Source of the DNA: a virus
Taxonomy: Duplodnaviria > Heunggongvirae > Uroviricota > Caudoviricetes
Virus record (IMG/VR): IMGVR_UViG_3300042430_003153
DNA length: 12,271 nt
Reading direction: 5' to 3' (one strand)
The stretch's first letter is position 1; each line of letters starts with the position of its first letter. The position numbers and the translations under genes are program-made. Of this stretch, positions 2-12,238 are shown in pieces. Below the pieces are notes generated by a model. It had not been told where the DNA came from. It saw only the letters and a program-made list of their open reading frames with translations, and did not search any database.

Positions 2-271
2 AAAGGAGCTGAAGACAGACTTAATACTAATAAAGTATTTGTTGATTTTCCAGATATTGATAAACAAGCTTATCAAGAAGCTTGTCAATTTGTTAGCTAC
101 TATGGTGGGTCTTTCGACTTTTTTGATGAAAATATAGAAAAGGGTGGTGAAATGCCACTAACATCTGCAATTGAAATTGCGGGTAAATGGTATATAGTTG
201 GTGGTAATCGTAGAATGACTTATTATGTTTTAAGTGGAATAAATCCTACAATTTGGTTGATTAAACTATGA
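2..271 (+). CDS. 3' end of a ParB/sulfiredoxin-like domain protein (partial, runs in from the window edge)
   Basis: Not in the ORF track. Open frame from base 2 to TGA at 269-271, overlapping the next ATG (ATGA). Translation ends ...EMPLTSAIEIAGKWYIVGGNRRMTYYVLSGINPTIWLIKL, resembling the ParB/Srx P-x-x-x...G-x-Y-x-h-h-x-G-N/H-R-R motif. Confidence 0.55.
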   Translation, partial: KGAEDRLNTNKVFVDFPDIDKQAYQEACQFVSYYGGSFDFFDENIEKGGEMPLTSAIEIAGKWYIVGGNRRMTYYVLSGINPTIWLIKL

Positions 272-954
272 AAGTAATAAATCTAATTGACGAAATTAAT
301 AGAAGTGAGTGGTTGGTTAGATTTTATGATGAATTGCTTGTTCCTAATTTTTCACAATTTCCAGAAGAGCTTGATACTTTAGATACTTTTTATTACGCTC
401 TCAACAGTAAATCAGTTTACCCTTATACTTTACACATTACTTTATTAATAGAAGATGATAAAATCTTAGCAGGTTGTTCTTATGAATATTATCCTAAAAG
501 TCAATCTGCATTATTAACTTACATAGTTGTGAGTGAATTGGCTAAAGGTAGAGGATTGTCAAAGATACTTATGTCGGAAATTCAAAGTCAATTAAAAATT
601 AACCATGAAAACATAAAGGCACTATTTGCTGAATCAAATTCAGATAAAGTTGATGAGTCTAAAGATGTTATGAATCCAAAATTAAGAAGACAGATTTTAA
701 ATAGATTAGGATTTTTTTATTTAGATTTCGATTATATACAACCTCCTTTATCAAAAGAATCTGATAAATGTAAAGATTTATTATTATCAGTTCATAAAGA
801 TTATTTAATATCAGATAAAATAAAAAGTCATATTTTGATAGATTGGTTAGAAGAATTCTGGGAAACTCTTTCTGACTTAAAAGATTTAGATTGGATAAAG
901 ACTAAAGAAAAGTTAGAATTATCAAAATTTGTCAATGTTATAAATAATATATAA
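268..954 (+). CDS. GNAT-family N-acetyltransferase
   Basis: Beta-strand YEYY followed by LLTYIVVSELAKGRGLSKIL (acetyl-CoA-binding motif A, x-x-G-x-G), then LNRLGF and YIQPPL, typical of GNAT C-terminal halves. ATGA-coupled to the upstream gene. Confidence 0.8.
   Translation: MKVINLIDEINRSEWLVRFYDELLVPNFSQFPEELDTLDTFYYALNSKSVYPYTLHITLLIEDDKILAGCSYEYYPKSQSALLTYIVVSELAKGRGLSKILMSEIQSQLKINHENIKALFAESNSDKVDESKDVMNPKLRRQILNRLGFFYLDFDYIQPPLSKESDKCKDLLLSVHKDYLISDKIKSHILIDWLEEFWETLSDLKDLDWIKTKEKLELSKFVNVINNI
945..953 (+). promoter_or_regulatory. TAATATATA motif (putative phage late promoter or initiation signal)
   Basis: Exact 9-mer ending 4 nt before the ATG at 958; recurs at four other gene starts. 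Confidence 0.65.
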
Positions 955-957
955 CAT

Positions 958-1722
958 ATGAAATATTTAAAACTATTTGAGGCATTTGTTAATGATGTTA
1001 AATTTTATAGATTTTCTAAAGAAGATTTTTTAGACGGACAAGATGAATCTACTTATCAACCAAAGTCAAGACAGACTTGGGGTTATCCTCAGTTTAATGA
1101 GTATCTTGTTAATTTAGGATTTCCTGATAGAACTAAATGTATTCATTTTATGGATAACATGGCTTTCAATAGCGGAGAGTTAGATAATTACAAAAACCTA
1201 TATGGTCGATGGATATATGAAATAGAAGTTGATGAGAACTCAAATTTAGGTTGGTCATTTTGTCTTGTAGTAAATGATTGGTATTTTCATTATTATCTTC
1301 ATAAGTTGGATGGGAATCCAGTAGTCGAAGATGTTAGAAATTACGTTAGTTCTTTAGAAACACAAGATGAGCAAGAAATTACTAATCTAAGAATTGATTA
1401 TGTTATTGAAAGAGGTATAATTGGAACTGGAACTTTACAAGATTTAAAGAACTCACCGTTTTATGGAAAACAACCGGTCTTTGTTTGGACTACGGATGAT
1501 GTAAAAATGAAAGTTATTGATAGTCCAAAAAAGATATCTAAAGATCCTAAATCTTATAAAAATGAACCAGTAATTAATAGTGAAGATTTTTTAAGTAGAG
1601 GTATTCAAAGTAAAGAAATTGGACAGTTTTATCAATCTGAATTTGGTAAAACTTTAAAAAGAGAACAACTTGGAAGAGAAGAAGCTCTTAGACTATTAGA
1701 TGAATGGGTAAAAACAAGATGA
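958..1722 (+). CDS. Hypothetical phage protein with MKYLKLFE leader
   Basis: 254-aa ORF with a clean start and stop overlapping the next ATG; no recognisable family beyond the shared leader. Confidence 0.8.
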   Translation: MKYLKLFEAFVNDVKFYRFSKEDFLDGQDESTYQPKSRQTWGYPQFNEYLVNLGFPDRTKCIHFMDNMAFNSGELDNYKNLYGRWIYEIEVDENSNLGWSFCLVVNDWYFHYYLHKLDGNPVVEDVRNYVSSLETQDEQEITNLRIDYVIERGIIGTGTLQDLKNSPFYGKQPVFVWTTDDVKMKVIDSPKKISKDPKSYKNEPVINSEDFLSRGIQSKEIGQFYQSEFGKTLKREQLGREEALRLLDEWVKTR

Positions 1723-2495
1723 GATATTTAAAAAAATATAAATTATTTGAAGCCAGTTGGTATGATATAAAAGATCATATCGATGTGCTTTCAGATATGT
1801 CTATGTATTTATGGGATAAAGAGTTTAATGTTCAAGTTGCTGATGAGATTATAAGTAGAGAGCATCAGTGTATCGTTGTTAATATAGTTAAAAAAGGTTC
1901 TAATAAATTTACTTATACAGAGATAAAACAAGAGTTATTAGAAATGGTCGGGTATATGGATAGAGAAGGTTGGGAAATTTTAAATATGGAATTTACTCAT
2001 ATTGCAGCCGGTCCTCTTTATTGTAAATTAGATGGTGATAAATTAGTAACTATATCGGGAGAAGAAATCGACTATCAATTTGACCAACTGCTAGTTAAGT
2101 TTGTTGAAAAAGATATTACTCAGTTTGAAGAAGACAAGGCTTTTATTTCTGACACACTTTTAGAATTGCAGGATAGAGGATTTAAAATTAGAATTGGACA
2201 TGATGGAATTGCTCGTAGTTTTTCAATAACTGAACCGATGCCTATCTTTATAATTGATAGTTTTAAATTTCGTGTTGGTGGTCGAGTATATTTCAAATTT
2301 TCAGATGTAAAAGATGAGCTTCTTCAGATTAAATCTTACTTAGGTGATAGATGGTTCAAATGTGGTGTTCTTTTTGAAGGTGATCCTAATAGAATAGAAG
2401 TTTATATAGATGAAAAAGATTATGATAATTTAGACGATTGGTTTCAAACTTCAACAACAGCAATCGTAAATTTGGCTGTATTTTTTAATATATAG
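1719..2495 (+). CDS. Hypothetical phage protein with two tandem copies of a ~60-70-aa domain; leader MRYLKKYKLFE
   Basis: Start moved from 1704 to 1719 because ATG 1719-1721 overlaps the upstream TGA (ATGA) and begins the shared leader. Internal repeats: VLSDMSMYLWDKEFNVQV / FISDTLLELQDRGFKIRI and FTYTEIKQELLEMVGYM / FKFSDVKDELLQIKSYL. Confidence 0.8.
   Translation: MRYLKKYKLFEASWYDIKDHIDVLSDMSMYLWDKEFNVQVADEIISREHQCIVVNIVKKGSNKFTYTEIKQELLEMVGYMDREGWEILNMEFTHIAAGPLYCKLDGDKLVTISGEEIDYQFDQLLVKFVEKDITQFEEDKAFISDTLLELQDRGFKIRIGHDGIARSFSITEPMPIFIIDSFKFRVGGRVYFKFSDVKDELLQIKSYLGDRWFKCGVLFEGDPNRIEVYIDEKDYDNLDDWFQTSTTAIVNLAVFFNI
2486..2494 (+). promoter_or_regulatory. TAATATATA motif (putative phage late promoter or initiation signal)
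   Basis: Exact 9-mer, preceded by a T-run, 4 nt before the ATG at 2499. Confidence 0.65.
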
Positions 2496-2498
2496 TTA

Positions 2499-3131
2499 AT
2501 GAAACATTTAAAATCATACAAATTATTTGAATCTCAAAATTTAGATTCTTTAGCAAATCAGTTCTTAGATGAATATTCTCATCAATATGATTTGAGATTA
2601 GGTAAACCTTTTGATAAAGAAAAGGCAAATTGTTCTTGGTTTACAAAAGAATTTTATAACTGGGCTAAATCAAAATCAATAGATGTTAAGATAGTTTATT
2701 TTGATTCAGATGTAGAAGCTCATATTGTTCCTATGATTGATGGACAAACTATTGACTTTTCAGTGAAACAATTTACAAAAAACCCCGATGATGATTATTT
2801 AATTCTAGCACCAGATGATTATTCTAAATGGGGATATTCAGAATATGAAATACTAGATGAATTCCCAGACTGGGCTACAGTGATGAGTGCTTCTAAATCA
2901 AAATGGTCAGAAATTGATAACAAACTTCAAAGAGAGTTTGAATTTGATGATTTTCAACAGGCTTTACAATTCATAAATGAAATTGCAGTAATATGTGAAT
3001 CTGAAAATCATCACCCTGAAATCAACTGGGTATATAATAAAATAATAATTAAATTATCGACTCATGATGCTGGAGATGTTATTACCGAGAAAGATATAAA
3101 ATTAGCAGAACTAATAGATGAAGTGGCTTAA
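2499..3131 (+). CDS. Fusion: N-terminal transglutaminase/papain-like Cys-His-Asp domain + C-terminal pterin-4a-carbinolamine dehydratase (PCD/PhhB-like) domain
   Basis: The C-terminal ~75 aa carry the PCD signature W..x..KLQREFEFDDF..A..F.N.IA...E..NHHPEI...YN.....LSTHDAG..T.KDI.LA..ID. The N-terminal part has NC45, H75 (EAHIVP) and D86 (IDFSVKQF) in triad order. PCD is well supported; the triad call is weaker. Confidence 0.75.
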   Translation: MKHLKSYKLFESQNLDSLANQFLDEYSHQYDLRLGKPFDKEKANCSWFTKEFYNWAKSKSIDVKIVYFDSDVEAHIVPMIDGQTIDFSVKQFTKNPDDDYLILAPDDYSKWGYSEYEILDEFPDWATVMSASKSKWSEIDNKLQREFEFDDFQQALQFINEIAVICESENHHPEINWVYNKIIIKLSTHDAGDVITEKDIKLAELIDEVA

Positions 3132-3882
3132 GACATATAAAATATTTGAAAATTATAATAAGTTTGGTTCTAAAACCATTACTGAATCTGAGTTTGATAA
3201 AATCAGAAAAGAGAATTGTAAAAACTGGACTAAAGTTGAAACTGAACTTTTTAGAGGTATGCCGGATTTAGGAGACTATGTTTTTGTAGATCCAAAATTA
3301 GGAGATTTTAGAAGTTCAATTGAAGACACAAATATACACTTAGAATTGATGTCTAATCTTCCAAGTTGGAAAGATTATCCAAGATATGATAGATGTGTTA
3401 TAGGTGGATCCCCTGGAGCTGTTGGATCTTATGGTGATGTTATTTATGAGATGATTCCATTTGATGGTGTTCAAATCAGTGTTTGTCCTTTTTCAACCAT
3501 CTGGGAATCATTTGGAAGTGACTTTGATGAATGGGGTGGTGATATTTATTTAGTTGAGTATTTTTTAGATGCTGTTGGATTAAATTCTGGTTGGATTCAA
3601 AGTGGTGGTGAAACACTTGAAACTAAATTAAAATCAATTGAATTTTTTGATTTAGAAAAAGAAGAAATTGATAATTTTATTATTGACTGTGCTTTATTTA
3701 CTAAAAAGAAAAAAGAAGAAATAACTGGTGAAGATTGTTATAACTTTATAAATGACTACATTTTTAACCCTGAAAAAAGAGGGTTTGAGTTAAAGACATA
3801 TGATGAAAATTTCAAAATAGAAAATAAAAAACAAATCTGGACAGAAGGTCCAGTTCTTTTAATTAAAGGAAAATTATCTTAA
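3118..3882 (+). CDS. Hypothetical phage protein, possible ADP-ribosyltransferase-like fold; leader MKWLKTYKIFE
   Basis: The ORF is solid. The fold guess rests on LFRG (first ART strand Arg) followed by CVIGGS...A..YG..IY, loosely matching R-S-E-clade ART order with a degenerate S-x-S. Confidence 0.45.
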   Translation: MKWLKTYKIFENYNKFGSKTITESEFDKIRKENCKNWTKVETELFRGMPDLGDYVFVDPKLGDFRSSIEDTNIHLELMSNLPSWKDYPRYDRCVIGGSPGAVGSYGDVIYEMIPFDGVQISVCPFSTIWESFGSDFDEWGGDIYLVEYFLDAVGLNSGWIQSGGETLETKLKSIEFFDLEKEEIDNFIIDCALFTKKKKEEITGEDCYNFINDYIFNPEKRGFELKTYDENFKIENKKQIWTEGPVLLIKGKLS

Positions 3883-4163
3883 AAGCTTCTGAAGTCTTTT
3901 ACACTACCGATATTTTGTAGAATAGGTGCCGTGTTTCTAAGACCAAATTTTGAATTAGGAATTGATATCTTAGTAAAGTCAATTTTATCATCCATTAATT
4001 CAGGGAACTCTCTAAAATAGTTTGTTAAAAAATCCATGTTTTCTTCTTCAGATTTATCTTTATTCCATAAATGAATTAGTCTAGTTTTATTCTTTTCAAT
4101 AAAATCTACAACATCTTTATTTACTACTGGATTCCAATTTTCAAATTGTTTTAAAAATTTCAT
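3879..4163 (-). CDS. Small hypothetical protein with MKFLKQFE leader
   Basis: 94 aa; its ATG overlaps the upstream TGA (4160-4163); carries the shared leader. Confidence 0.75.
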   Translation of the reverse strand: MKFLKQFENWNPVVNKDVVDFIEKNKTRLIHLWNKDKSEEENMDFLTNYFREFPELMDDKIDFTKISIPNSKFGLRNTAPILQNIGSVKDFRSF

Positions 4164-4699
4164 ATATAATTTAAAAGATTTAAGAGATAAGATATGTTTT
4201 TTGCATCATCAATTCCTCTATGATTAAATCCTGAAAACTCATAACCTAATTCAATTAGGGCATCTTTAGGATTCTTTGGGGCTTGTTTTGGATTATCTGT
4301 CTTTAATAATTTTTGAGCAAATAATTTTCTAACATTAATATGATTTACTGGAAGATTTATCTTTATATCGTATAACTCAGACATCTTTTCAAACATTTCT
4401 TTATCATAATCACCATAAGAAGCCCAAGTTGTATATCTAAGACTCGTCTTATTTAACTTATTATAAGCTAAATTATAATCATCTCCATTTTGTTCAATAT
4501 ATTCAGTAGTAAGTGATGTTAATTTAGTGCAAAAGTCATTGATTTTGGAATATACTGGTTTAATTAAAATACATTCATTAAACGTATTTTTTGTATCAGA
4601 AAGTCCAATTTCTATTATCTCACTTACTTTTTCAAGACAAGTAGACTCAACATCTATTACTAATATATTTTCAGAAAAATTTTTAAATCTTTGTATCAT
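4160..4699 (-). CDS. DEDDh 3'-5' exonuclease (RNase T / ERI1 / KapD-like)
   Basis: ExoI VIDVESTC, ExoII WASYGDYD, ExoIII HRGIDDAKNI. Start moved from 4723 to 4699 (MIQRFKNFSE), which lies 1 nt after the upstream TAA and gives the shared leader. Confidence 0.85.
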   Translation of the reverse strand: MIQRFKNFSENILVIDVESTCLEKVSEIIEIGLSDTKNTFNECILIKPVYSKINDFCTKLTSLTTEYIEQNGDDYNLAYNKLNKTSLRYTTWASYGDYDKEMFEKMSELYDIKINLPVNHINVRKLFAQKLLKTDNPKQAPKNPKDALIELGYEFSGFNHRGIDDAKNISYLLNLLNYI

Positions 4700-4700
4700 A

Positions 4701-5615
4701 TTATATTTTAAATCCAATTTCATCTACGGTCACTTTTTCAAGTGCGGTTTTTAGGTCTTGTCTTAGTTTCTCATCACCATAAGCCTTATTTTTAATAATA
4801 TCTTTTAATATGGTAAATACTTGAATGTAACCTTCTTTATCAAACATCTTATAGATAACATTTCCTTTACCCCAGTTCTGACTAACATATCCCGGTTCAA
4901 TCTCTGTTGAGTAAGCAGAGGATCTAAACTTTTTAATGAATCCTTCTTGATTATCAGCAGTCAATTTTTCAGAGTCTATCTTACTAATTTCGGCATATTT
5001 TGAATAAGCTAATTTCATATTTCTAACAATATCATTTTCGCTCTTATTATCTATTAATGATTGTTGTAATTTCTTTAAAGACACTTGAACAAACTTCTCA
5101 AATCCATAATATATTTTATTTTCCTCTGATTTTGTATCACCAATCTTCTTGTTATACATATACATAGTTTTTTCATAATCAGGTTTTTTGATCCAAGTAT
5201 CTGTTTTAACATCATATGCTGAGTCAGCACTATCTAGATTATCTCTTGTTTTAAAATTTAATTTAAATTGATAAGGTCTCTTATTGTGGTAGAATTTAGC
5301 ATCTAAGTTTTTCTCAATCCATTTATCAACTTGATGTAGATAGCTCTTTTCTGTATCTGGACTTACTACAACAGTTGTATCAATATCAGAATCATCACCA
5401 TATTGGAAAGTCACAGCGGCACCAACTAAATAATAATCATCTATCTTTAGGTTAAGAAAGTTTTTTTTGATGATTGCGATTCCTTCTTCAATTTTAGATT
5501 TAACTTCTTTCTTTATTTTACCATTTGGTTCAAAGATATCAGAATATGATTTAGAAGGAACATCTGTTATTGCTTCTTTTAATGATATATCAGAAAATTT
5601 TTTAATATACTTCAT
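4701..5615 (-). CDS. Pol-beta-superfamily nucleotidyltransferase-like phage protein
   Basis: YYLVGAAVTFQYGDDSDIDTTVVV fits hG[GS]-x10-D-h-D-h, with Ala in place of G/S. Later AYDVKTDTWIKKP and GNVIYKMFDKEGY segments are, from recall, typical of phage NTase-like proteins. Confidence 0.7.
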   Translation of the reverse strand: MKYIKKFSDISLKEAITDVPSKSYSDIFEPNGKIKKEVKSKIEEGIAIIKKNFLNLKIDDYYLVGAAVTFQYGDDSDIDTTVVVSPDTEKSYLHQVDKWIEKNLDAKFYHNKRPYQFKLNFKTRDNLDSADSAYDVKTDTWIKKPDYEKTMYMYNKKIGDTKSEENKIYYGFEKFVQVSLKKLQQSLIDNKSENDIVRNMKLAYSKYAEISKIDSEKLTADNQEGFIKKFRSSAYSTEIEPGYVSQNWGKGNVIYKMFDKEGYIQVFTILKDIIKNKAYGDEKLRQDLKTALEKVTVDEIGFKI

Positions 5616-5619
5616 ATCT

Positions 5620-5628
5620 TATATATTA
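5620..5628 (-). promoter_or_regulatory. TAATATATA motif (putative phage late promoter or initiation signal)
   Basis: The + strand TATATATTA is the exact motif on the - strand, 4 nt before the ATG at 5615. Confidence 0.65.
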
Positions 5629-5663
5629 AACTTTTTTTAATTAAATACTATAAAATAAGTGTT

Positions 5664-5688
5664 TGTCATTAAGACTGTCATTCTGTCA
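5664..5688 (+). repeat. Three TGTCA direct repeats upstream of dnaK (with an inverted TGACA at 5713-5717)
   Basis: TGTCA at 5664-5668, 5676-5680 and 5684-5688, read directly from the sequence. Confidence 0.55.
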
Positions 5689-5700
5689 GTAAAAACCCAA

Positions 5701-5716
5701 TGGCACAACATTTGAC
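5701..5716 (+). promoter_or_regulatory. Sigma54-like -24/-12 element upstream of dnaK
   Basis: TGGCACAACATTTGAC vs consensus TGGCACGNNNNTTGCW: TGGCAC and TTG are correctly spaced, but the conserved -12 C is replaced by A. It lies 27 nt before the ATG. Confidence 0.45.
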
Positions 5717-5743
5717 AATGTATAACTAAAAAATAAATAAAAT

Positions 5744-7624
5744 ATGGCAAAAGATGTAATTATCGGAATTGACTTGGGAACTACAAATTCGTGTGTTGCT
5801 GTGGTAGAAGGTGGCGAACCAATCGTTATCACAAACTCCGAAGGTAGAAGAACAACCCCGTCTGTAGTTGGTTTTACCGACAAAGACAGAAAAATTGGAG
5901 ATCCTGCTAAAAGACAAGCAGTAACAAATCCAACTAAAACAGTTTATTCTATTAAACGATTTATCGGAAAAGACTTTTCAGTTTGTAAAGACGAAGTAGG
6001 GAGAGTTCCTTATGTAGTAACCAATACTGGAACTAATGTCCCTGGTGTAAAAATCGATGATAGAGTTTACACACCACAAGAAATTTCAGCTATGATTCTT
6101 CAAAAGATGAAGAAAACCGCTGAAGACTATTTAGGATACGAAGTAAAAAGAGCGGTTATCACTGTTCCTGCTTACTTCGGAGATGCTGAAAGAACTGCTA
6201 CTATTGAAGCAGGTGAAATTGCTGGTCTTAAAGTAGAAAGAATTATCAACGAACCAACAGCTGCGGCACTGGCTTATGGTTTAGATAAGAAAAACACAGA
6301 TGCTAAAATCTTAGTATTTGACTGTGGTGGTGGAACACATGACGTTTCTGTTCTTGAAATTGGTGATGGTGTATTTGAAGTTAAATCTACTGATGGTGAT
6401 ACTCACTTAGGTGGTGACGACTTCGATAACGCAATCATCGAGTGGATGGTTAGTGAGTTTAAATCTGAAAATGATATTGATCTTTCTAAAGATCCAATGT
6501 CTCTTCAACGTTTGAAAGATGCAGCTGAGAAAGCAAAGATTGAATTATCTTCTACTTCTCAATCTGAAATCAACCTTCCTTACATTACAGCAAGAGATAA
6601 CATGCCTCTTCACTTTGTTAAATCTTTAACAAAGTCTCAGTTTGACCAAATGACGGTTAAACTTGTAGATAGAGCTGTGGCTTGTGCAAAAAGTGCCCTT
6701 AAAAATGCTGGTCTTAAACCATCTGACATTGATGAAGTAATCTTAGTCGGTGGTTCAACAAGAATTCCAGCAATTCAGGAGGCAGTAGAAAAGTATATTG
6801 GTAAGAAACCAAACAAATCAGTAAATCCTGATGAAGTAGTTGCTTTAGGAGCCGCTATTCAAGGAGCTGTTTTGACTGGTGGAATCACTGATGTTCTTCT
6901 TTTAGATGTAACTCCTCTTTCACTTGGTATTGAAACAATGGGTTCAGTTATGACTAAGTTGATTGAAGCTAATACAACAATTCCGACCCGTAAGTCTGAA
7001 ACGTTCTCAACAGCTTCTGATAATCAACCGTCTGTTGAAATTCACGTTTTACAAGGTGAAAGACCGATGGCTCGTGACAACCGATCACTTGGTCGTTTCC
7101 ACTTAGACGGAATCATGCCAGCTCCGAGAGGTGTCCCTCAAGTTGAAGTAACATTAGACATTGATGCCAACGGTATACTTTCAGTATCTGCTAAAGATAA
7201 AGCTACTGGTAAAGAAAATCAAATTCGTATTGAAGGTGGTTCTCAATTATCTAAAGAAGAAATTGAAAGAATGAAAGCAGAAGCTGAAGAAAACGCAGAA
7301 GCTGATGCTAAAGAAAGAGAAATGGTTGATAAGTTAAATACAGCAGACTCAATGATTTTCCAAACGGAAAAACAAATCAAAGAGTTTGATGAGAAATTAA
7401 CACCAGAAGATAAGACAACTTTAAATGAGAAGTTGGCTGATTTGAAATCTGCTCATTCTGAAAAGAATTTAGAAAAGATTGATGAATCAACAGCAAGTTT
7501 AAATGAAGCTTGGTCAGCTATCTCTACTAAGTTGTATCAACAAACTGAACAACCAACCGAATCAACTGATTCTGAATCCGGAACTGATGAAGTTCAAGAT
7601 GCAGACTTTGAAGAAGTTAAGTAA
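5744..7624 (+). CDS. dnaK: Molecular chaperone DnaK (Hsp70)
   Basis: [69 protein letters not shown], the [16 protein letters not shown] linker and a C-terminal DADFEEVK; 626 aa, full length. Confidence 0.99.
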
Positions 7625-7733
7625 TATCCACGTTTAGGTTGTAAGTCAGGAAGAGGAACGGAGCAGAAACCTCTTAGAAAGGAAACGAAGCATGAATACC
7701 CTGATGTTTTGACCCCGTTCACGTTAAGGATAT
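7624..7733 (+). ncRNA. Candidate structured RNA between the dnaK stop and the terminator (family unassigned; strand uncertain)
   Basis: About 43% GC by hand count (47/109) in an AT-rich window. Nested pairings: 7624-7629/7728-7733, 7630-7633/7721-7724, 7637-7641/7710-7714, 7645-7650/7700-7705, 7651-7656/7670-7675. Possible pseudoknot 7657-7661/7715-7719. Confidence 0.45.
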
Positions 7734-7740
7734 GAAAACC

Positions 7741-7770
7741 AAAAAACCCAGTCTTAGACTGGGTTTTTTT
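7741..7770. terminator. Bidirectional intrinsic terminator
   Basis: Perfect 13-bp inverted repeat AAAAAACCCAGTC-TTA-GACTGGGTTTTTT between converging dnaK and the 7773-7985 gene, with U-tails available on both strands. Confidence 0.9.
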
Positions 7771-7772
7771 AT

Positions 7773-7985
7773 TTATTTTATTGAATCTAAAAATTTATCG
7801 TAGTCAAATTTAATATCTTCTCTTTTAAATTGAGAAATCATATCTTTTGCTATTTCCATTCTATTTTCTTTATCTTTTACTTTTTTAAGTATATCTATAA
7901 TACCAGAGACCATTTGGTAGTCATTACCTTTTATCTCTGATTTTATTTCTTTCTTTGATTCGTTTATTTGACTAAATTTTCTCAT
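7773..7985 (-). CDS. Small hypothetical protein with MRKFSQINES leader
   Basis: 70 aa from ATG 7985 (the track start at 7988 is a GTG). Ends just before the terminator. Confidence 0.7.
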   Translation of the reverse strand: MRKFSQINESKKEIKSEIKGNDYQMVSGIIDILKKVKDKENRMEIAKDMISQFKREDIKFDYDKFLDSIK

Positions 7986-8016
7986 CACTCTTTATTTTTT
8001 TAGTGGATACGACGCA

Positions 8017-8493
8017 CTAATCCATCAGCCATTCATCAATTCCTCTTGGTTCTTCATCGTGTAATCTTTCCTGATTACCCATTCTACCATTTTTTTCAAT
8101 AGTATCATTGTGTTGAATATGACAGGAAATAAAAAACTGACTTTGGTCATTAAAGTTGAATTCGATTTCATAACCAACTGTGTATTCCATACTCATTAAT
8201 GTTTCTTTAGCATCTTGTAAAATATCTAAAACTTTAGTAATATCTAATTTCATTGGTTCTAAATTAGTGATACCATATGAAGAATCATTCTCTATATAGT
8301 CATATTTACTTTCAACTTTTTTGATAATATCAATATACCATTTTCCATTTTGTTTAGAAGTAATGTTGTTGCTTAACGGACGGAAACTAAAGTCCATATC
8401 AATTAAATCAATGAAAACTTCTTTAATAGTTTTTTCATCAATAAACTCTGAACTTTCTTTAATGAATTCTGTATATGTCTTTTTTATTTTCAT
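8017..8493 (-). CDS. Hypothetical phage protein; leader MKIKKTYTEFIKES
   Basis: 158 aa, starting 2 nt after the upstream stop. IKEVFIDLIDMDFSF resembles the repeat unit of the 1719-2495 protein. Confidence 0.8.
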   Translation of the reverse strand: MKIKKTYTEFIKESSEFIDEKTIKEVFIDLIDMDFSFRPLSNNITSKQNGKWYIDIIKKVESKYDYIENDSSYGITNLEPMKLDITKVLDILQDAKETLMSMEYTVGYEIEFNFNDQSQFFISCHIQHNDTIEKNGRMGNQERLHDEEPRGIDEWLMD

Positions 8494-8495
8494 AA

Positions 8496-9734
8496 TTAAT
8501 ATTCACTATACCATTCTCCTTCAGTCGAACGGAGAACTCTCATATCTTTATCTTCGTCTTGTTCGTTAGACAATAGGTTTTCTTCAGGGTAACAGAAACA
8601 AAGAGTATCAACATATGGATAGTAACTCCAATCTGCATCATTTAGCTGAACACTTAAAGACCATCTTCCAGAACTTGTTCCATCAGTGATGGTTTCTCTC
8701 GGCGTCATACTTTGAGAATCTTTATAATACCAACCATTCTTTTGTGCAAATTGTTTGAATAACTCTACATCTGAATCAAAAGTTGTATATATTCGATCCA
8801 TAAACATTGATTTTTGACCATTTACTACACACTCCCAAAGAATAGCTCTTCCTTTAATTCTATTAGCTTTATATTTATCACCGGTAATTTGACCATCATC
8901 ACCATAAAGAATGACAAGTTGAACCTGTGGATTTTTTGAGTAGATATAAAGATATTCTTCATCTACTTCTGCCATACAAGAGTTGTTCAATGTTCCACCA
9001 CCATCTACATAATTATCATAGTGATACCAATGTATAATATCGTTTTCTTTTACAACATCAAATTGTTTTAAACCATCAGCTGCAAAGTCATAAGTTGCTT
9101 TAAACTGGTTGATAAATTCTTCAAGTTCTGGATCAGTAATTTCAACACCAGCACTTCTCAATAGTGGTCTTACTAGTCTACCAACTTTGATAGGATTTCT
9201 TGAAGTTTTCCAAATAACTGAATCATCCATTTCAGAGAGTGTTAAACAATCTCTATTAAGAACTGCATATCTTTTTTCATCTGAGTCTGTTAATTCTTCA
9301 AAAAGAACAAATACTTTACCAGAAGTCGAACTAACAGTTTCGGCTTTTATTAAACCTTTTTGACCATCATCTGGTGTCCAATAGTCTTTATATCTATCAT
9401 ACCCAAGTGTATCAAAAATACTATCATTGGATTGATTATGTGTTAATTGTCTACGAGTTCCTACTTTATATACTTCTGGTTTATCTTGAAGGAGTTCCTT
9501 AACCTTTCTATCTGGTGTAAAACTTAATGAGTCTTTTTTATCAGTTATATCTACATAGTTATACTGAACATCAAAATCTTTTGAATAAATATTTAGTAGG
9601 TCTGATGCAACTTTATTAGTTCGCATTCTGTTAAGAAGATTAATAAACTTCTTTGAAAAAACAACTTTGGATTCCATTAAAAGTTCTATTAGGACGTTTT
9701 CGGTTAAAAAATCTGAATAATTAAATAGTTTCAT
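8496..9734 (-). CDS. Hypothetical phage protein (412 aa) with SCM / GRAILW / MDRIY / YPYVDT motifs
   Basis: Start moved from the TTG at 9764 to the ATG at 9734 (MKLFNYSDFLTEN), which carries the shared leader and the upstream TAATATATA. Long ORF; function not assigned. Confidence 0.8.
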   Translation of the reverse strand: MKLFNYSDFLTENVLIELLMESKVVFSKKFINLLNRMRTNKVASDLLNIYSKDFDVQYNYVDITDKKDSLSFTPDRKVKELLQDKPEVYKVGTRRQLTHNQSNDSIFDTLGYDRYKDYWTPDDGQKGLIKAETVSSTSGKVFVLFEELTDSDEKRYAVLNRDCLTLSEMDDSVIWKTSRNPIKVGRLVRPLLRSAGVEITDPELEEFINQFKATYDFAADGLKQFDVVKENDIIHWYHYDNYVDGGGTLNNSCMAEVDEEYLYIYSKNPQVQLVILYGDDGQITGDKYKANRIKGRAILWECVVNGQKSMFMDRIYTTFDSDVELFKQFAQKNGWYYKDSQSMTPRETITDGTSSGRWSLSVQLNDADWSYYPYVDTLCFCYPEENLLSNEQDEDKDMRVLRSTEGEWYSEY

Positions 9735-9739
9735 AAAAG

Positions 9740-9748
9740 TATATATTA
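9740..9748 (-). promoter_or_regulatory. TAATATATA motif (putative phage late promoter or initiation signal)
   Basis: Exact motif on the - strand, 5 nt before the ATG at 9734. Confidence 0.65.
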
Positions 9749-9808
9749 TTTTCGAAAAATCCAATTTCGAATTTTAATCTATTTTGAATTAAAAATATAT
9801 ATCTTGCT

Positions 9809-10063
9809 ATGGATGTTATACTTAACAAAGTAATTAAAAAAAAGATTATCAAACTAATCAAAGATTATACTATTGATGGTATCAATGAGTTAGTTTTAGA
9901 TTTTCCTCTTTCTGAGAGCACATTCCATTCTATTGAATTAGTAGAAATTGATAATGACATTCTACTACACAGTTTTGATACAGACTTTGATTATTCTTAT
10001 TTGTTTGAAGACTTTTGTGAAGACGATAAATTAAGAATCTATCAAATATTAAAGGGAATTTAA
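9809..10063 (+). CDS. Small acidic hypothetical protein
   Basis: 84 aa; fills the gap between two - strand genes. Preceded by the motif variant AAATATATA (9793-9801). Overlaps the endolysin 3' end by 15 nt. Confidence 0.6.
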   Translation: MDVILNKVIKKKIIKLIKDYTIDGINELVLDFPLSESTFHSIELVEIDNDILLHSFDTDFDYSYLFEDFCEDDKLRIYQILKGI

Positions 10064-11056
10064 CATTTGTAAAAGTTCTGGCTGTGGAAATAAATCAAAT
10101 TTATCTTTTCTAACTTGAGTATGTGTTCTTAATCCACCTAAACTAAACCACTTTTCATCATACTCAAACCAATCTTCATTATAAATTCCAGATTCAATTT
10201 CAATATTCCATCTATTTTTTAAATAAAGTATTAATTTTCTAGTAGACTCTAATTGAACATCTGTATATTTCTCCCAATATTTATAACCTTTAAATGGTTT
10301 ACTTAATTCAACTACATCTTCGTTATTTATCGGTTTATTTACATAGTTATAAAACTTACCATCTCTACCAGGTGTCAGTTGGCCATAATTACATATTTCA
10401 ATCGATACTGATTTAGAGTTTAATTCTTTACTATTCTCTGTGATACCTAAGTGATAAGCCCAGTATCTATCATCAAATGCTTTTAATACTTTACCATCCC
10501 ATAAACTAATATCAGATGATGATGATTTTCTACCAATTACAAAATGAGCGGCTACTTTAAGTGGTTTGAAATTTCCATTTGAATCTAAAATAGGTTGACC
10601 ATTTTTGTCTAATTGATATCCTTTTTCCCAACCATCAATAGTCCAGTCTGGTCTTGATCCACCAGCTGTGTGGTGTAACCAAATTGTATTTTTACTTACT
10701 TCCTGTTTGATGAACTCTTCATCAGTTAAAAAGTTTTCATAAATGATTAGACCATCAGATCCTACATAAGAAATATTCTGAGGTATATCTGACTTTCTAT
10801 TACTTAATTTTGTAATTTCTACAACTTTATCTTTTTCTTCACCAAACATTTCAATTTGACTCCAAGTTTGAAAACCTATAATTCCATCAACTCTAACTCC
10901 AACTTGTCTTTGAAAATTAGTTACTGCTATAAGTAAATTTTGCCCAAAATAACCATCAATTCTATCTGTAAAGAAACCAAATTCTTTCAATTTTAGTTGA
11001 GCATGTTTGATGTCTTCACCATACATCTTCAGCGTTAGGACTCTTCTTAGTTTCAT
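10049..11056 (-). CDS. Modular endolysin-like protein: N-terminal peptidoglycan-binding domain + N-acetylmuramoyl-L-alanine amidase (Amidase_2)
   Basis: PGBD pattern DGYFG....AV..FQ...G...DGIIG..TW. Amidase motifs IWLHHTAG, AHFVIG, AYHLG, NSKSVSIEIC and THTQVRKDKFD (His/His/Asp Zn ligands as in AmpD-type enzymes). Confidence 0.9.
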   Translation of the reverse strand: MKLRRVLTLKMYGEDIKHAQLKLKEFGFFTDRIDGYFGQNLLIAVTNFQRQVGVRVDGIIGFQTWSQIEMFGEEKDKVVEITKLSNRKSDIPQNISYVGSDGLIIYENFLTDEEFIKQEVSKNTIWLHHTAGGSRPDWTIDGWEKGYQLDKNGQPILDSNGNFKPLKVAAHFVIGRKSSSSDISLWDGKVLKAFDDRYWAYHLGITENSKELNSKSVSIEICNYGQLTPGRDGKFYNYVNKPINNEDVVELSKPFKGYKYWEKYTDVQLESTRKLILYLKNRWNIEIESGIYNEDWFEYDEKWFSLGGLRTHTQVRKDKFDLFPQPELLQMLNSL

Positions 11057-11568
11057 TTCATCATGTTATTTTTATATCTCTCAGCTTGTTTCTTTTCCAT
11101 GTAAGCCTTAACATCTTCATAAGTTACACCACCTGGATTTTGAATAAGTTTATCTGCGGAACCTTCTTCTCTTTCAATTTTCTTGAGTTCGTCATTTTTC
11201 TTTTTCTCTTCGTAGGCTTCATCTGCATTTTTCAATAAATGACCTAAATAAAAGTCAACTCCTTTTTCGCCTACTATTTGATAATCAAATGAATTAACAA
11301 ACTCTTCAAAAGTTTCACCAACATAAACACCAAAGTTTAAATCATGTATCATATGGTCGACATAAAAACGAATGTCACCAACATTACCCTGTGCGTAAAT
11401 TGTAGTTCTATAACTTTGGTTGTAAAATTTACCAAACTTATCCCGATCATTAAAAACTCTTTGACCATTTTTTTCAATTGTTGCAACAACACCTAAGCTT
11501 TGTCTAAAATATTTACTCTTTTTAAACTCTTGTGCAATTTTAACTCCACAAACTATATTTACCGCCAT
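11053..11568 (-). CDS. Hypothetical protein, translationally coupled to the endolysin
   Basis: 171 aa; its TGA overlaps the endolysin ATG (ATGA 11053-11056). No long hydrophobic segment. Confidence 0.8.
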   Translation of the reverse strand: MAVNIVCGVKIAQEFKKSKYFRQSLGVVATIEKNGQRVFNDRDKFGKFYNQSYRTTIYAQGNVGDIRFYVDHMIHDLNFGVYVGETFEEFVNSFDYQIVGEKGVDFYLGHLLKNADEAYEEKKKNDELKKIEREEGSADKLIQNPGGVTYEDVKAYMEKKQAERYKNNMMK

Positions 11569-11575
11569 AATAACT

Positions 11576-11584
11576 TATTTATTA
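11576..11584 (-). promoter_or_regulatory. TAATAAATA, one-mismatch variant of the late-promoter-like motif
   Basis: Lies just downstream of a terminator and 7 nt before the ATG at 11568, where a new promoter is needed. Confidence 0.45.
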
Positions 11585-11606
11585 AAAATTTAAATCTTCC
11601 TTAAAC

Positions 11607-11640
11607 AAAAAACCCTATAGATAATTCTATAGGGCTTTTT
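11607..11640. terminator. Intrinsic terminator (mainly for the - strand 11656-12225 gene; possibly bidirectional)
   Basis: Stem CCCTATAGA (11613-11621) / TCTATAGGG (11626-11634) with a 4-nt loop, flanked by A6 on the left and T5 on the right. Confidence 0.85.
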
Positions 11641-11655
11641 AAATTATTAAAAAAC

Positions 11656-12225
11656 TTATTCAGTTTCTATCTCAAATTCTTCTTCATCTCCGGATTTTTC
11701 ATCAATATCAATTTTAAGGTCAACAAGATAGTCTTCATCTATTTTATTTATTTCTATTTTTAAATACTCTGGCTTATCACCATCAATTGGACTTGGTAAC
11801 TGACCGATAACCTCAAATGTATCTAAATCATACTTCTTTAATTTGATATCACACATCATTGGTTTCTCTTCTGTTTTAGGAAGACCTTCTTTAATATCAA
11901 TTGTTATTATTAATGTATATAAATAATTATCATCTGTGAATTTTACAGTCAGGTTATCATATAGTTTTGAGTATTTAGAAACTTCAGAACTTTGTAACAT
12001 AACTCCTAAATCTTTGAAAGACATTTTATTTTTTTTCTTTGAATCTATTTTGGCTTTTTCAATTGATTTTTCTTTAGGTAGATCCATATCGTCAATATCA
12101 CCTTCTTGATACTCAAATATTTTGTCTATTTTCTTTTTCAATTGAGCTAAAGCGGTTTCGACATAGTTCTCAGGAGTATCATTTAACTCTTCGGTAATGA
12201 ATTGATAAAATTTTCTAATTTTCAT
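11656..12225 (-). CDS. Hypothetical acidic phage protein with MKIRKFYQFITEE leader
   Basis: 189-aa ORF between a TAATATATA motif and a terminator; no recognisable family. Confidence 0.8.
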   Translation of the reverse strand: MKIRKFYQFITEELNDTPENYVETALAQLKKKIDKIFEYQEGDIDDMDLPKEKSIEKAKIDSKKKNKMSFKDLGVMLQSSEVSKYSKLYDNLTVKFTDDNYLYTLIITIDIKEGLPKTEEKPMMCDIKLKKYDLDTFEVIGQLPSPIDGDKPEYLKIEINKIDEDYLVDLKIDIDEKSGDEEEFEIETE

Positions 12226-12229
12226 AAAG

Positions 12230-12238
12230 TATATATTA
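12230..12238 (-). promoter_or_regulatory. TAATATATA motif (putative phage late promoter or initiation signal)
   Basis: Exact motif on the - strand, 4 nt before the ATG at 12225. Confidence 0.65.

Follow-up and report, generated by a model that had tools for sequence, protein, structure and literature searches.

The DNA analysed here is a stretch of 12,271 nucleotides (nt) from the Caudoviricetes record IMGVR_UViG_3300042430_003153, hereafter the window, in which many of the encoded proteins begin with a similar short leader peptide. The leaders are 8-14 residues long, run from Met1 and have Glu at the end, and a clear leader is present on 9 of the ~17 genes of the window, with two more genes as possible members. 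We evaluated N-termini with two profile hidden Markov models (HMMs), leadA and leadB, which were trained only on N-termini of LR745206, the record of a 634,780-bp uncultured huge phage, and applied with a cut-off of at least 10 bits. The leadA model describes the type A leader, MK[YH][LI]K-x-[FY] followed by E after 1-4 residues, and leadB describes the type B leader, aromatic-x-x-aromatic-[IL]-x-E. An earlier reading of this DNA, the original prediction, had quoted eleven leader-bearing N-termini, all of which read in the sequence as quoted. Nine of these, named by the first position of the start codon (958, 1719, 2499, 3118, 4163, 5615, 8493, 9734, and 12225), scored 10.9-24.7 bits and stand as leaders, whereas the starts at 4699 and 7985 scored weakly and are retained as possible members only. 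The leader genes and possible members are the following:

958..1722, plus strand: leader gene, 254 amino acids (aa); MKYLKLFE at 958-981, type A; leadA 18.2 bits
1719..2495, plus strand: leader gene, 258 aa; MRYLKKYKLFE at 1719-1751, long form of type A; leadA 22.4 bits
2499..3131, plus strand: leader gene, 210 aa; MKHLKSYKLFE at 2499-2531; leadA 24.7 bits
3118..3882, plus strand: leader gene, 254 aa; MKWLKTYKIFE at 3118-3150; leadA 22.7 bits
3879..4163, minus strand: leader gene, 94 aa; MKFLKQFE at 4140-4163, short type A; leadA 11.3 bits
4160..4699, minus strand: DEDD (RNase T-type) exonuclease, 179 aa, possible member; weak leader-like MIQRFKNFSE at 4670-4699, 1.5 bits
4701..5615, minus strand: leader gene, 304 aa; MKYIKKFSDISLKE at 5574-5615; leadA 13.1 bits; body without family match
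7773..7985, minus strand: 70-aa protein, possible member; weak leader-like MRKFSQINE at 7959-7985, 4.7 bits
8017..8493, minus strand: leader gene, 158 aa; MKIKKTYTEFIKE at 8455-8493, type B, with Y-x-x-F-I-x-E as in T4; leadB 17.3 bits
8496..9734, minus strand: leader gene, 412 aa, member of a large family; MKLFNYSDFLTE at 9699-9734, type B; leadB 15.1 bits
11656..12225, minus strand: leader gene, 189 aa; MKIRKFYQFITE at 12190-12225, type B; leadB 23.4 bits

The 1719 gene begins within the 3' end of the 958 gene, and the Joint Genome Institute (JGI) call places its start at an earlier ATG, 1704, with the leader beginning at the second Met; the JGI start call for the 4699 gene is at 4723. The LR745206 orthologue of the 12225 protein opens with MKIRKYIEFITE. 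Starts resembling that at 7985 occur in LR745206, for example MRKFSQIVES and MKKFSKLNES, and the 7985 start is possibly an instance of a third leader form, M[RK]KF[ST]x[IL]xE. A blind six-frame scan of all 420 ATGs in the window returned the nine gene starts and one spurious open reading frame (ORF) of 12 codons. DnaK, the amidase (the endolysin), the GNAT-like protein, and the 11568 protein, which had been described as lacking the leader, all scored below 4 bits, as did an 84-aa ORF.

The frequency of the leader was determined over the whole LR745206 record, in which a greedy ORF call gave 892 ORFs of at least 60 aa at 92% coding density. At the cut-off, 127 of the 892 N-termini (14.2%) were leader-positive, compared with 2 of 2785 internal-Met controls (0.07%), an enrichment of ~200-fold at true starts. 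The stricter pattern M[KR][YHWF][LI][KR] opens 68 of the 892 ORFs, while shuffles that keep the N-terminal composition gave 0.57 +/- 0.68. Scans of full-length LR745206 proteins found nearly no internal copies, and the one strong copy most likely reflects an error in the start call. Type A is the majority form, and the signature aromatic-x-x-aromatic-[ILVM]-x-E is present in 24 of the 32 type B leaders of LR745206; the window leaders at 8493, 9734, and 12225 fit it as well. The leader motif is far beyond chance. The possibility that it arises from AT-rich codon composition, raised with the original prediction as a way in which the pattern could prove spurious, was not borne out, as both the shuffles and the internal-Met controls lie far below the observed counts.

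The leaders resemble the capsid targeting sequence (CTS) of phage T4, for which removal from the internal proteins by gp21 was reportedly described by Mullaney and Black in 1996. In the T4 record AF158101, internal proteins II and III (IPII and IPIII) open with MKTYQEFIAE-A, as the original prediction had stated, and IPI opens with MKTFKEFTS...ITE-A. The N-terminal region of gp23 contains ...SFLTE-AEIGG, and that of gp24 contains MAKINELLRE-S. Cleavage of gp23 occurs after residue 65, the Glu in SFLTE-AEIGG. gp24 is among the T4 head proteins with a propeptide of 10-20 residues (PMC5694885), and the CTS of IPI, IPII, and IPIII is removed by the gp21 prohead protease (PMC9026906, PMC3012670). 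For packaging, the N-terminal 10 residues of IPIII are sufficient, and mutagenesis of the T4 CTS assigned targeting mainly to residues 4 and 7 and processing to residues 8 and 10 (PMC9026906). The residues fixed in type B leaders, Y, F/Y, L/I, and E, correspond to these positions 4, 7, 8, and 10, and the 8493 leader, which had been singled out as a near match to T4, carries the full Y-x-x-F-I-x-E. When leadA and leadB were applied to the N-termini of 150 T4 ORFs (101 kb of the genome), gp61.1, IPI, IPIII, and IPII took the first four places; the chance of finding all three internal proteins in the top four is 7e-6.

The highest T4 score belongs to a hypothetical protein, gp61.1, encoded by a 165-nt gene (L027:18966-19130, AF158101) and starting with MKTFKEFIKE (15.6 bits). 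Since it scores above the known internal proteins, gp61.1 may be an unrecognised CTS-bearing protein of T4.

The proteins behind the leaders are unrelated. No BLASTP pair at E<0.05 was found among the eleven leader-stripped bodies of the window, in agreement with the original prediction that the bodies are unrelated, and 80 strict leader proteins of LR745206 fell into 72 BLASTP clusters. Recent paralogy was therefore ruled out as the origin of the common start. Synonymous codon usage in the leaders follows the background for K, E, Y, F, and N (AAA for K, 0.69 vs 0.74; GAA for E, 0.70 vs 0.72), and Leu has a moderate excess of TTA. This places the conservation at the level of the peptide, and a nucleotide-level signal in the first codons was likewise ruled out by this usage.

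The 9734 family, with 739 homologues, allowed the leader to be followed within one protein. Across 117 orthologues (54-93% identity), Y6 is kept in 115 and E12 in all 117, and F/Y9 and L/I10 are fixed; the residues between these positions and the length before the Tyr vary. A paralogue in LR745206 (603271-604746, 44% identical) is leaderless: it starts ~20 residues later and has an in-frame stop 10 codons before its ATG, so the family occurs both with and without the leader. The two versions form a natural pair for studying the role of the leader. In the AlphaFold2 (AF2) model of the 3118 protein (predicted local distance difference test, pLDDT, 88.7), the only stretch below 50 pLDDT is residues 1-11, exactly the leader.

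A second recurrent element is the DNA motif TAATATATA, which lies immediately upstream of several leader genes. Its copies in the window, with one variant, are:

945..953, plus strand: TAATATATA, promoter-like, 4 nt before ATG 958
2486..2494, plus strand: TAATATATA, 4 nt before ATG 2499
5620..5628, minus strand: TAATATATA, 4 nt before ATG 5615
9740..9748, minus strand: TAATATATA, 5 nt before ATG 9734
12230..12238, minus strand: TAATATATA, 4 nt before ATG 12225
11576-11584: variant TAATAAATA, endolysin unit

The five exact copies head four transcription units of leader genes. In LR745206 the motif occurs no more than 60 nt upstream of 54 of the 127 leader genes and of 90 of the 765 other genes (p 5e-15), and in 0.7% of random 60-mers; of its 191 copies in the genome, 144 precede an ORF by 60 nt or less, and positions -13/-14 are the most frequent. 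The Bacteroidota-type TAnnTTTG box, a host-type element, is rarer before leader genes than before other genes (5/127 vs 98/765). The motif or a one-base variant is also found at -27 to -40 of the portal, protease-scaffold, capsid, sheath, and gp4 genes of LR745206, and most replication orthologues are without it. This distribution fits co-expression of the leader genes with the head genes, in a small sample of marker genes. The -10-type element of T4 late promoters is TATAAATA; if TAATATATA is a -10-type late promoter of this kind, its position only 4-5 nt before the start codons would make the mRNAs nearly leaderless.

The window comes from a giant uncultured phage and lies on an 88-kb JGI metagenome contig. 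Outside dnaK its GC content is 27-30%, and its dnaK gene is 82% identical at the nucleotide level to that of LR745206, the nearest relative used here, and 78% identical to that of a 642-kb huge phage. Gene order near dnaK is common to the window and LR745206, and the leader genes are changeable, with an LR745206 homologue for 3 of the 11 compared with 4 of the 5 complete non-leader neighbours. At the left edge of the window lies a further gene:

2..271, plus strand: C-terminal end of a 274-aa protein that starts outside the window (L001 19464-20288, minus strand of that locus) and carries the type B leader MKIKRYLEFITEE

The DnaK encoded by the phage is full-length (5744-7624). A relative also encodes a DnaJ-like protein (L006:7215-8297, starting MAKDYYDILGV) ~12 kb from dnaK, and the two genes together suggest a phage-borne Hsp70 system.

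The original prediction had called for a gp21-like prohead protease and scaffold, and both were found in relatives, namely LR745206 and 4 of 5 long IMG/VR contigs. In LR745206, a portal resembling gp20 was identified by phmmer (4.8e-23) and a capsid protein resembling gp23 by PF07068 (88.7 bits). An ORF of 707 aa (198546-200669) lies beside their genes, immediately upstream of the one for the capsid protein, and its first 200 residues align with T4 gp21; the match to PF03420 (Peptidase S77) is 20 bits, under the Pfam cut-off, and T4 His85 and Ser140 are kept. These are the residues that were mutated to obtain catalytically dead gp21 (PMC12991175). The rest of the ORF is scaffold-like, with 11-14 tandem 14-residue repeats of the form x-Y-S-E-Y-[LIV]-A-E-x-[LV]-D-K-N-I, each of which contains [LIV]-A-E, and an acidic tail. 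The fusion of protease and scaffold is the form seen in the 4 of 5 IMG/VR contigs, which had been picked by leader DNA pattern, and it recurs in 407 metagenome contigs, of which none among the best 80 comes from the sample of the window; the protease domain is conserved at 66-87% identity (L051-L054). By eye, the repeat segment SEY[LI]AEN is similar to the last residues of the T4 CTS. As the leader models are blind to the repeats, mimicry of the scaffold by the leader is not claimed. The capsid protein has a conserved 52-residue N-terminus that is T4-like (KW-x-P-V-L-E, then HSINEN), a hypervariable stretch of ~30 residues, and a conserved core (L056-L135). I-N-E-N, in the capsid propeptide, is kept in 47 distinct orthologues and is a plausible candidate for the maturation site.

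The labels previously given to the cargo proteins fared unevenly. Pfam bears out the exonuclease at 4699 (PF00929 from residue 13, E 1.1e-11) and the pterin-4a-carbinolamine dehydratase (PCD) domain that forms the C-terminal 80 aa of the 2499 protein (PF01329, residues 131-209, E 3.6e-26), and a G-x(n)-D-x-D motif is visible in the putative nucleotidyltransferase; the possible ADP-ribosyltransferase (ART) is a weak lead only. Of the 10 window leader proteins searched against Pfam and PHROGs, 7 had no match, the 958 protein among them. In the larger set of 126 LR745206 leader proteins, Pfam identified Sa_NUDIX, NUDIX, T4 RNA ligase 1, NFACT-R, a DnaJ-type zinc domain, and the wall hydrolases GH108 and Peptidase_M15_4; one protein is a fusion of a 2H-phosphoesterase and a DEDD exonuclease with a weak match to Acb1. 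The remaining matches are weak (DHH, Toprim, and MazE-like), and Pfam placed none of the 126 proteins in a polymerase or structural family. Membrane-like proteins are rarer with the leader than without it (3/127 vs 65/765).

The ART lead is the 3118 protein, which has a compact body and matches phrog_12810 (E 4e-20). When its model was compared by VIA-align, chains of the ART fold recurred at Z 2.7-5.8, including Arr (5.8), diphtheria toxin (4.0), PARPs, DarT, and OspC3. Foldseek gave nothing against the PDB at E<=0.001, an HMM search of the PDB gave one marginal match (5x55, deposited as a probable uracil-DNA glycosylase, E 8e-4), and the Atlas leads were DUF2441 and DUF3841. The 3118 protein may be a divergent ART-like enzyme. 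For the 9734 protein (AF2 model, pLDDT 80), the fold search returned weak partial SH3-like and GNAT-like matches only, all with PDB E>0.01. Its C-terminal half is common to gp037 of the Cellulophaga podovirus phi38:1 (L050:1261-2589, 28-30% identity), a hypothetical protein of cultured 72-kb Cellulophaga podoviruses whose N-terminus, MSIDKKYIARDF..., is without a clear leader. A Bacteroidota host range is thus indicated for the C-terminal domain.

We consider it moderately likely that the leaders are T4-type capsid-targeting propeptides and that their system is a much enlarged form of the CTS system of T4. On the sequence evidence, this reading fits better than any rival, and the original interpretation, tagging for packaging in the head and injection into the host, is partly supported, with each sequence-level prediction that was put to a test borne out. 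The presence of a start like the T4 tag on unrelated proteins suggests that the phage probably packs and injects a large and varied protein set. By analogy with T4, the leader genes would be transcribed together with the head genes, and the leader would bind a prohead core that is a single protein combining the gp21-type serine protease with the repeat scaffold. Binding to the core would put the cargo inside the assembling head, where the protease would cut after the leader Glu; the scaffold, at its 11-14 Y[LIV]AE repeats, and the major capsid protein, behind the conserved I-N-E, are probably further substrates of this protease. Mature cargo would be kept in the DNA-filled head and enter the host with the DNA. 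The predicted cargo comprises nucleases, enzymes of RNA repair and of nucleotide-signal degradation, cell-wall hydrolases, and many proteins of unassigned function.

Several observations weigh against this reading. The gp21-type protease and the head-module evidence all come from relatives of the window phage. A tagged set of ~127 species, 14% of the genes, is far above any proven use of a CTS. The leader bodies are acidic on average (-0.057 charge per residue, vs -0.017 for other proteins), unlike T4 IPII and IPIII, which are basic. Type A leaders have in common with the T4 CTS only the terminal Glu and a hydrophobic residue 2-3 places before it, and the T4 spacing is not exact. The leader models give no score to the scaffold repeats. 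Finally, TAATATATA precedes 5 of 8 orthologues of late T4 genes but also uvsX and gp46, which belong to replication and recombination, in a comparison of few marker genes. Caution about the CTS reading is called for mainly by the number of tagged proteins, the acidity of the bodies, and the departure of type A from the T4 form.

The closest competing explanation accepts the leader as a real N-terminal signal and gives it a role other than packaging, for example as a handle for the phage-encoded DnaK/DnaJ chaperones, as a degron that times protein turnover, or as a tag that sorts proteins to some phage-made compartment or assembly distinct from the prohead. Like DnaK-binding peptides in general, the leader has a basic and hydrophobic character, and the phage encodes its own DnaK, with a DnaJ-like protein in a relative; the tagged share of the genes and the acidic bodies are also unusual for capsid cargo. 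Against such a role, the conserved residues are the mapped determinants of the T4 CTS, and models built on megaphage N-termini retrieve the T4 internal proteins. The invariant terminal Glu moreover fits a Glu-specific protease of the gp21 type, which the relatives possess, and the upstream motif is common to leader and head genes. We regard a non-packaging signal as unlikely, though it deserves to be kept in mind.

It could also be argued that the peptide itself has little function and that the common start results mainly from recombination that spreads a mobile 5' cassette (promoter, start region, and first codons) between genes. The fixed position of the exact TAATATATA, 4-5 nt before five window leader genes and at -13/-14 in many genes of LR745206, is what such a cassette would leave behind, and the rapid turnover of the leader genes noted above agrees with it. 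However, 6 of the 11 window leader genes lie inside operons and retain the leader with no TAATATATA directly upstream, synonymous sites in the leaders vary like the background although the residues are fixed, and the 117 orthologues of the 9734 protein keep four specific residues (invariant or with conservative changes) as the intervening ones change. The cassette is thus an improbable explanation. Lastly, the similarity could have arisen by chance from AT-rich codon usage combined with the frequent Met-Lys start, in favour of which are the 27-30% GC of the genome and its abundance of K, I, L, F, N, Y, and E; this explanation was ruled out by the shuffles, the internal-Met controls, and the blind ATG scan, and we give it almost no weight.

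Returning to the CTS reading, a broader version of it is that a short CTS code, with two to three leader dialects, is in use among the huge freshwater phages of this clade and directs the loading of well over 100 different proteins, which are injected with the DNA. We put this forward tentatively, judging its chances to be slightly short of even. With similar reserve, the load injected under such a code may include enzymes of RNA repair and of nucleotide signalling, hydrolases of the cell wall, ART-like enzymes, and numerous proteins of unassigned function. If the leaders work as in T4, the injected protein set could be read from the genomes of phages that cannot be cultivated. In the largest known phages, ~1/7 of the coding capacity would then be devoted to injected proteins, and the size of these genomes would be seen differently, much of it as a pre-loaded toolkit that acts before phage gene expression. 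The leaders would also mark hundreds of candidate anti-defence and host-takeover proteins and would serve as new short tags with which to load foreign proteins into phage heads.

Among known systems, T4 Alt is an ADP-ribosyltransferase that is packed in the head and trimmed by gp21. The 3118 protein is comparable as a candidate enzyme delivered with the DNA, with a weak ART-like fold signal behind its leader; it differs in that its ART assignment is a lead (best Z 5.8, no Foldseek match), and the likeness is one of fold.

The resemblance to the T4 CTS is closer. Both are extreme N-terminal tags of 10-20 residues on unrelated, fast-evolving proteins, and both end in [IL]-x-E; type B leaders have aromatic residues at the equivalents of T4 residues 4 and 7, and a gp21-type protease with gp20/gp23-type head genes occurs both in T4 and in relatives of the window phage. 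The T4 internal proteins are poorly conserved among T4 relatives (PMC9026906), and the leader genes likewise turn over fast. The differences lie in scale and in form. Some 127 genes are tagged in the LR745206 genome, whereas the T4 record has three. The leaders come in two or three forms, of which the most frequent (MKYLKxFNES) does not occur in T4. The megaphage protease is fused to the scaffold, the cargo includes ordinary enzymes, and the system is known here from sequence alone.

A large complement of head proteins is also familiar from other giant phages. The ejection or inner-body proteins of phiKZ, 201phi2-1, and SPN3US are processed by a gp21-related protease (PMC5694885, PMC7411985). 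As is proposed for the phages considered here, these large phages pack dozens of head proteins (~50 in SPN3US) and have a protease that cuts after Glu (A-x-E or S-x-E). Their propeptides, however, are mostly longer than 100 residues and non-uniform, only 8 SPN3US head proteins are processed, and there is no short common leader from which cargo could be predicted from sequence. A search of the accessible literature found no paper describing such leaders in huge phages. Since the ~50 head proteins of SPN3US are already known, the new element is not protein packaging as such; it is the short uniform tag on ~1/7 of the genes.

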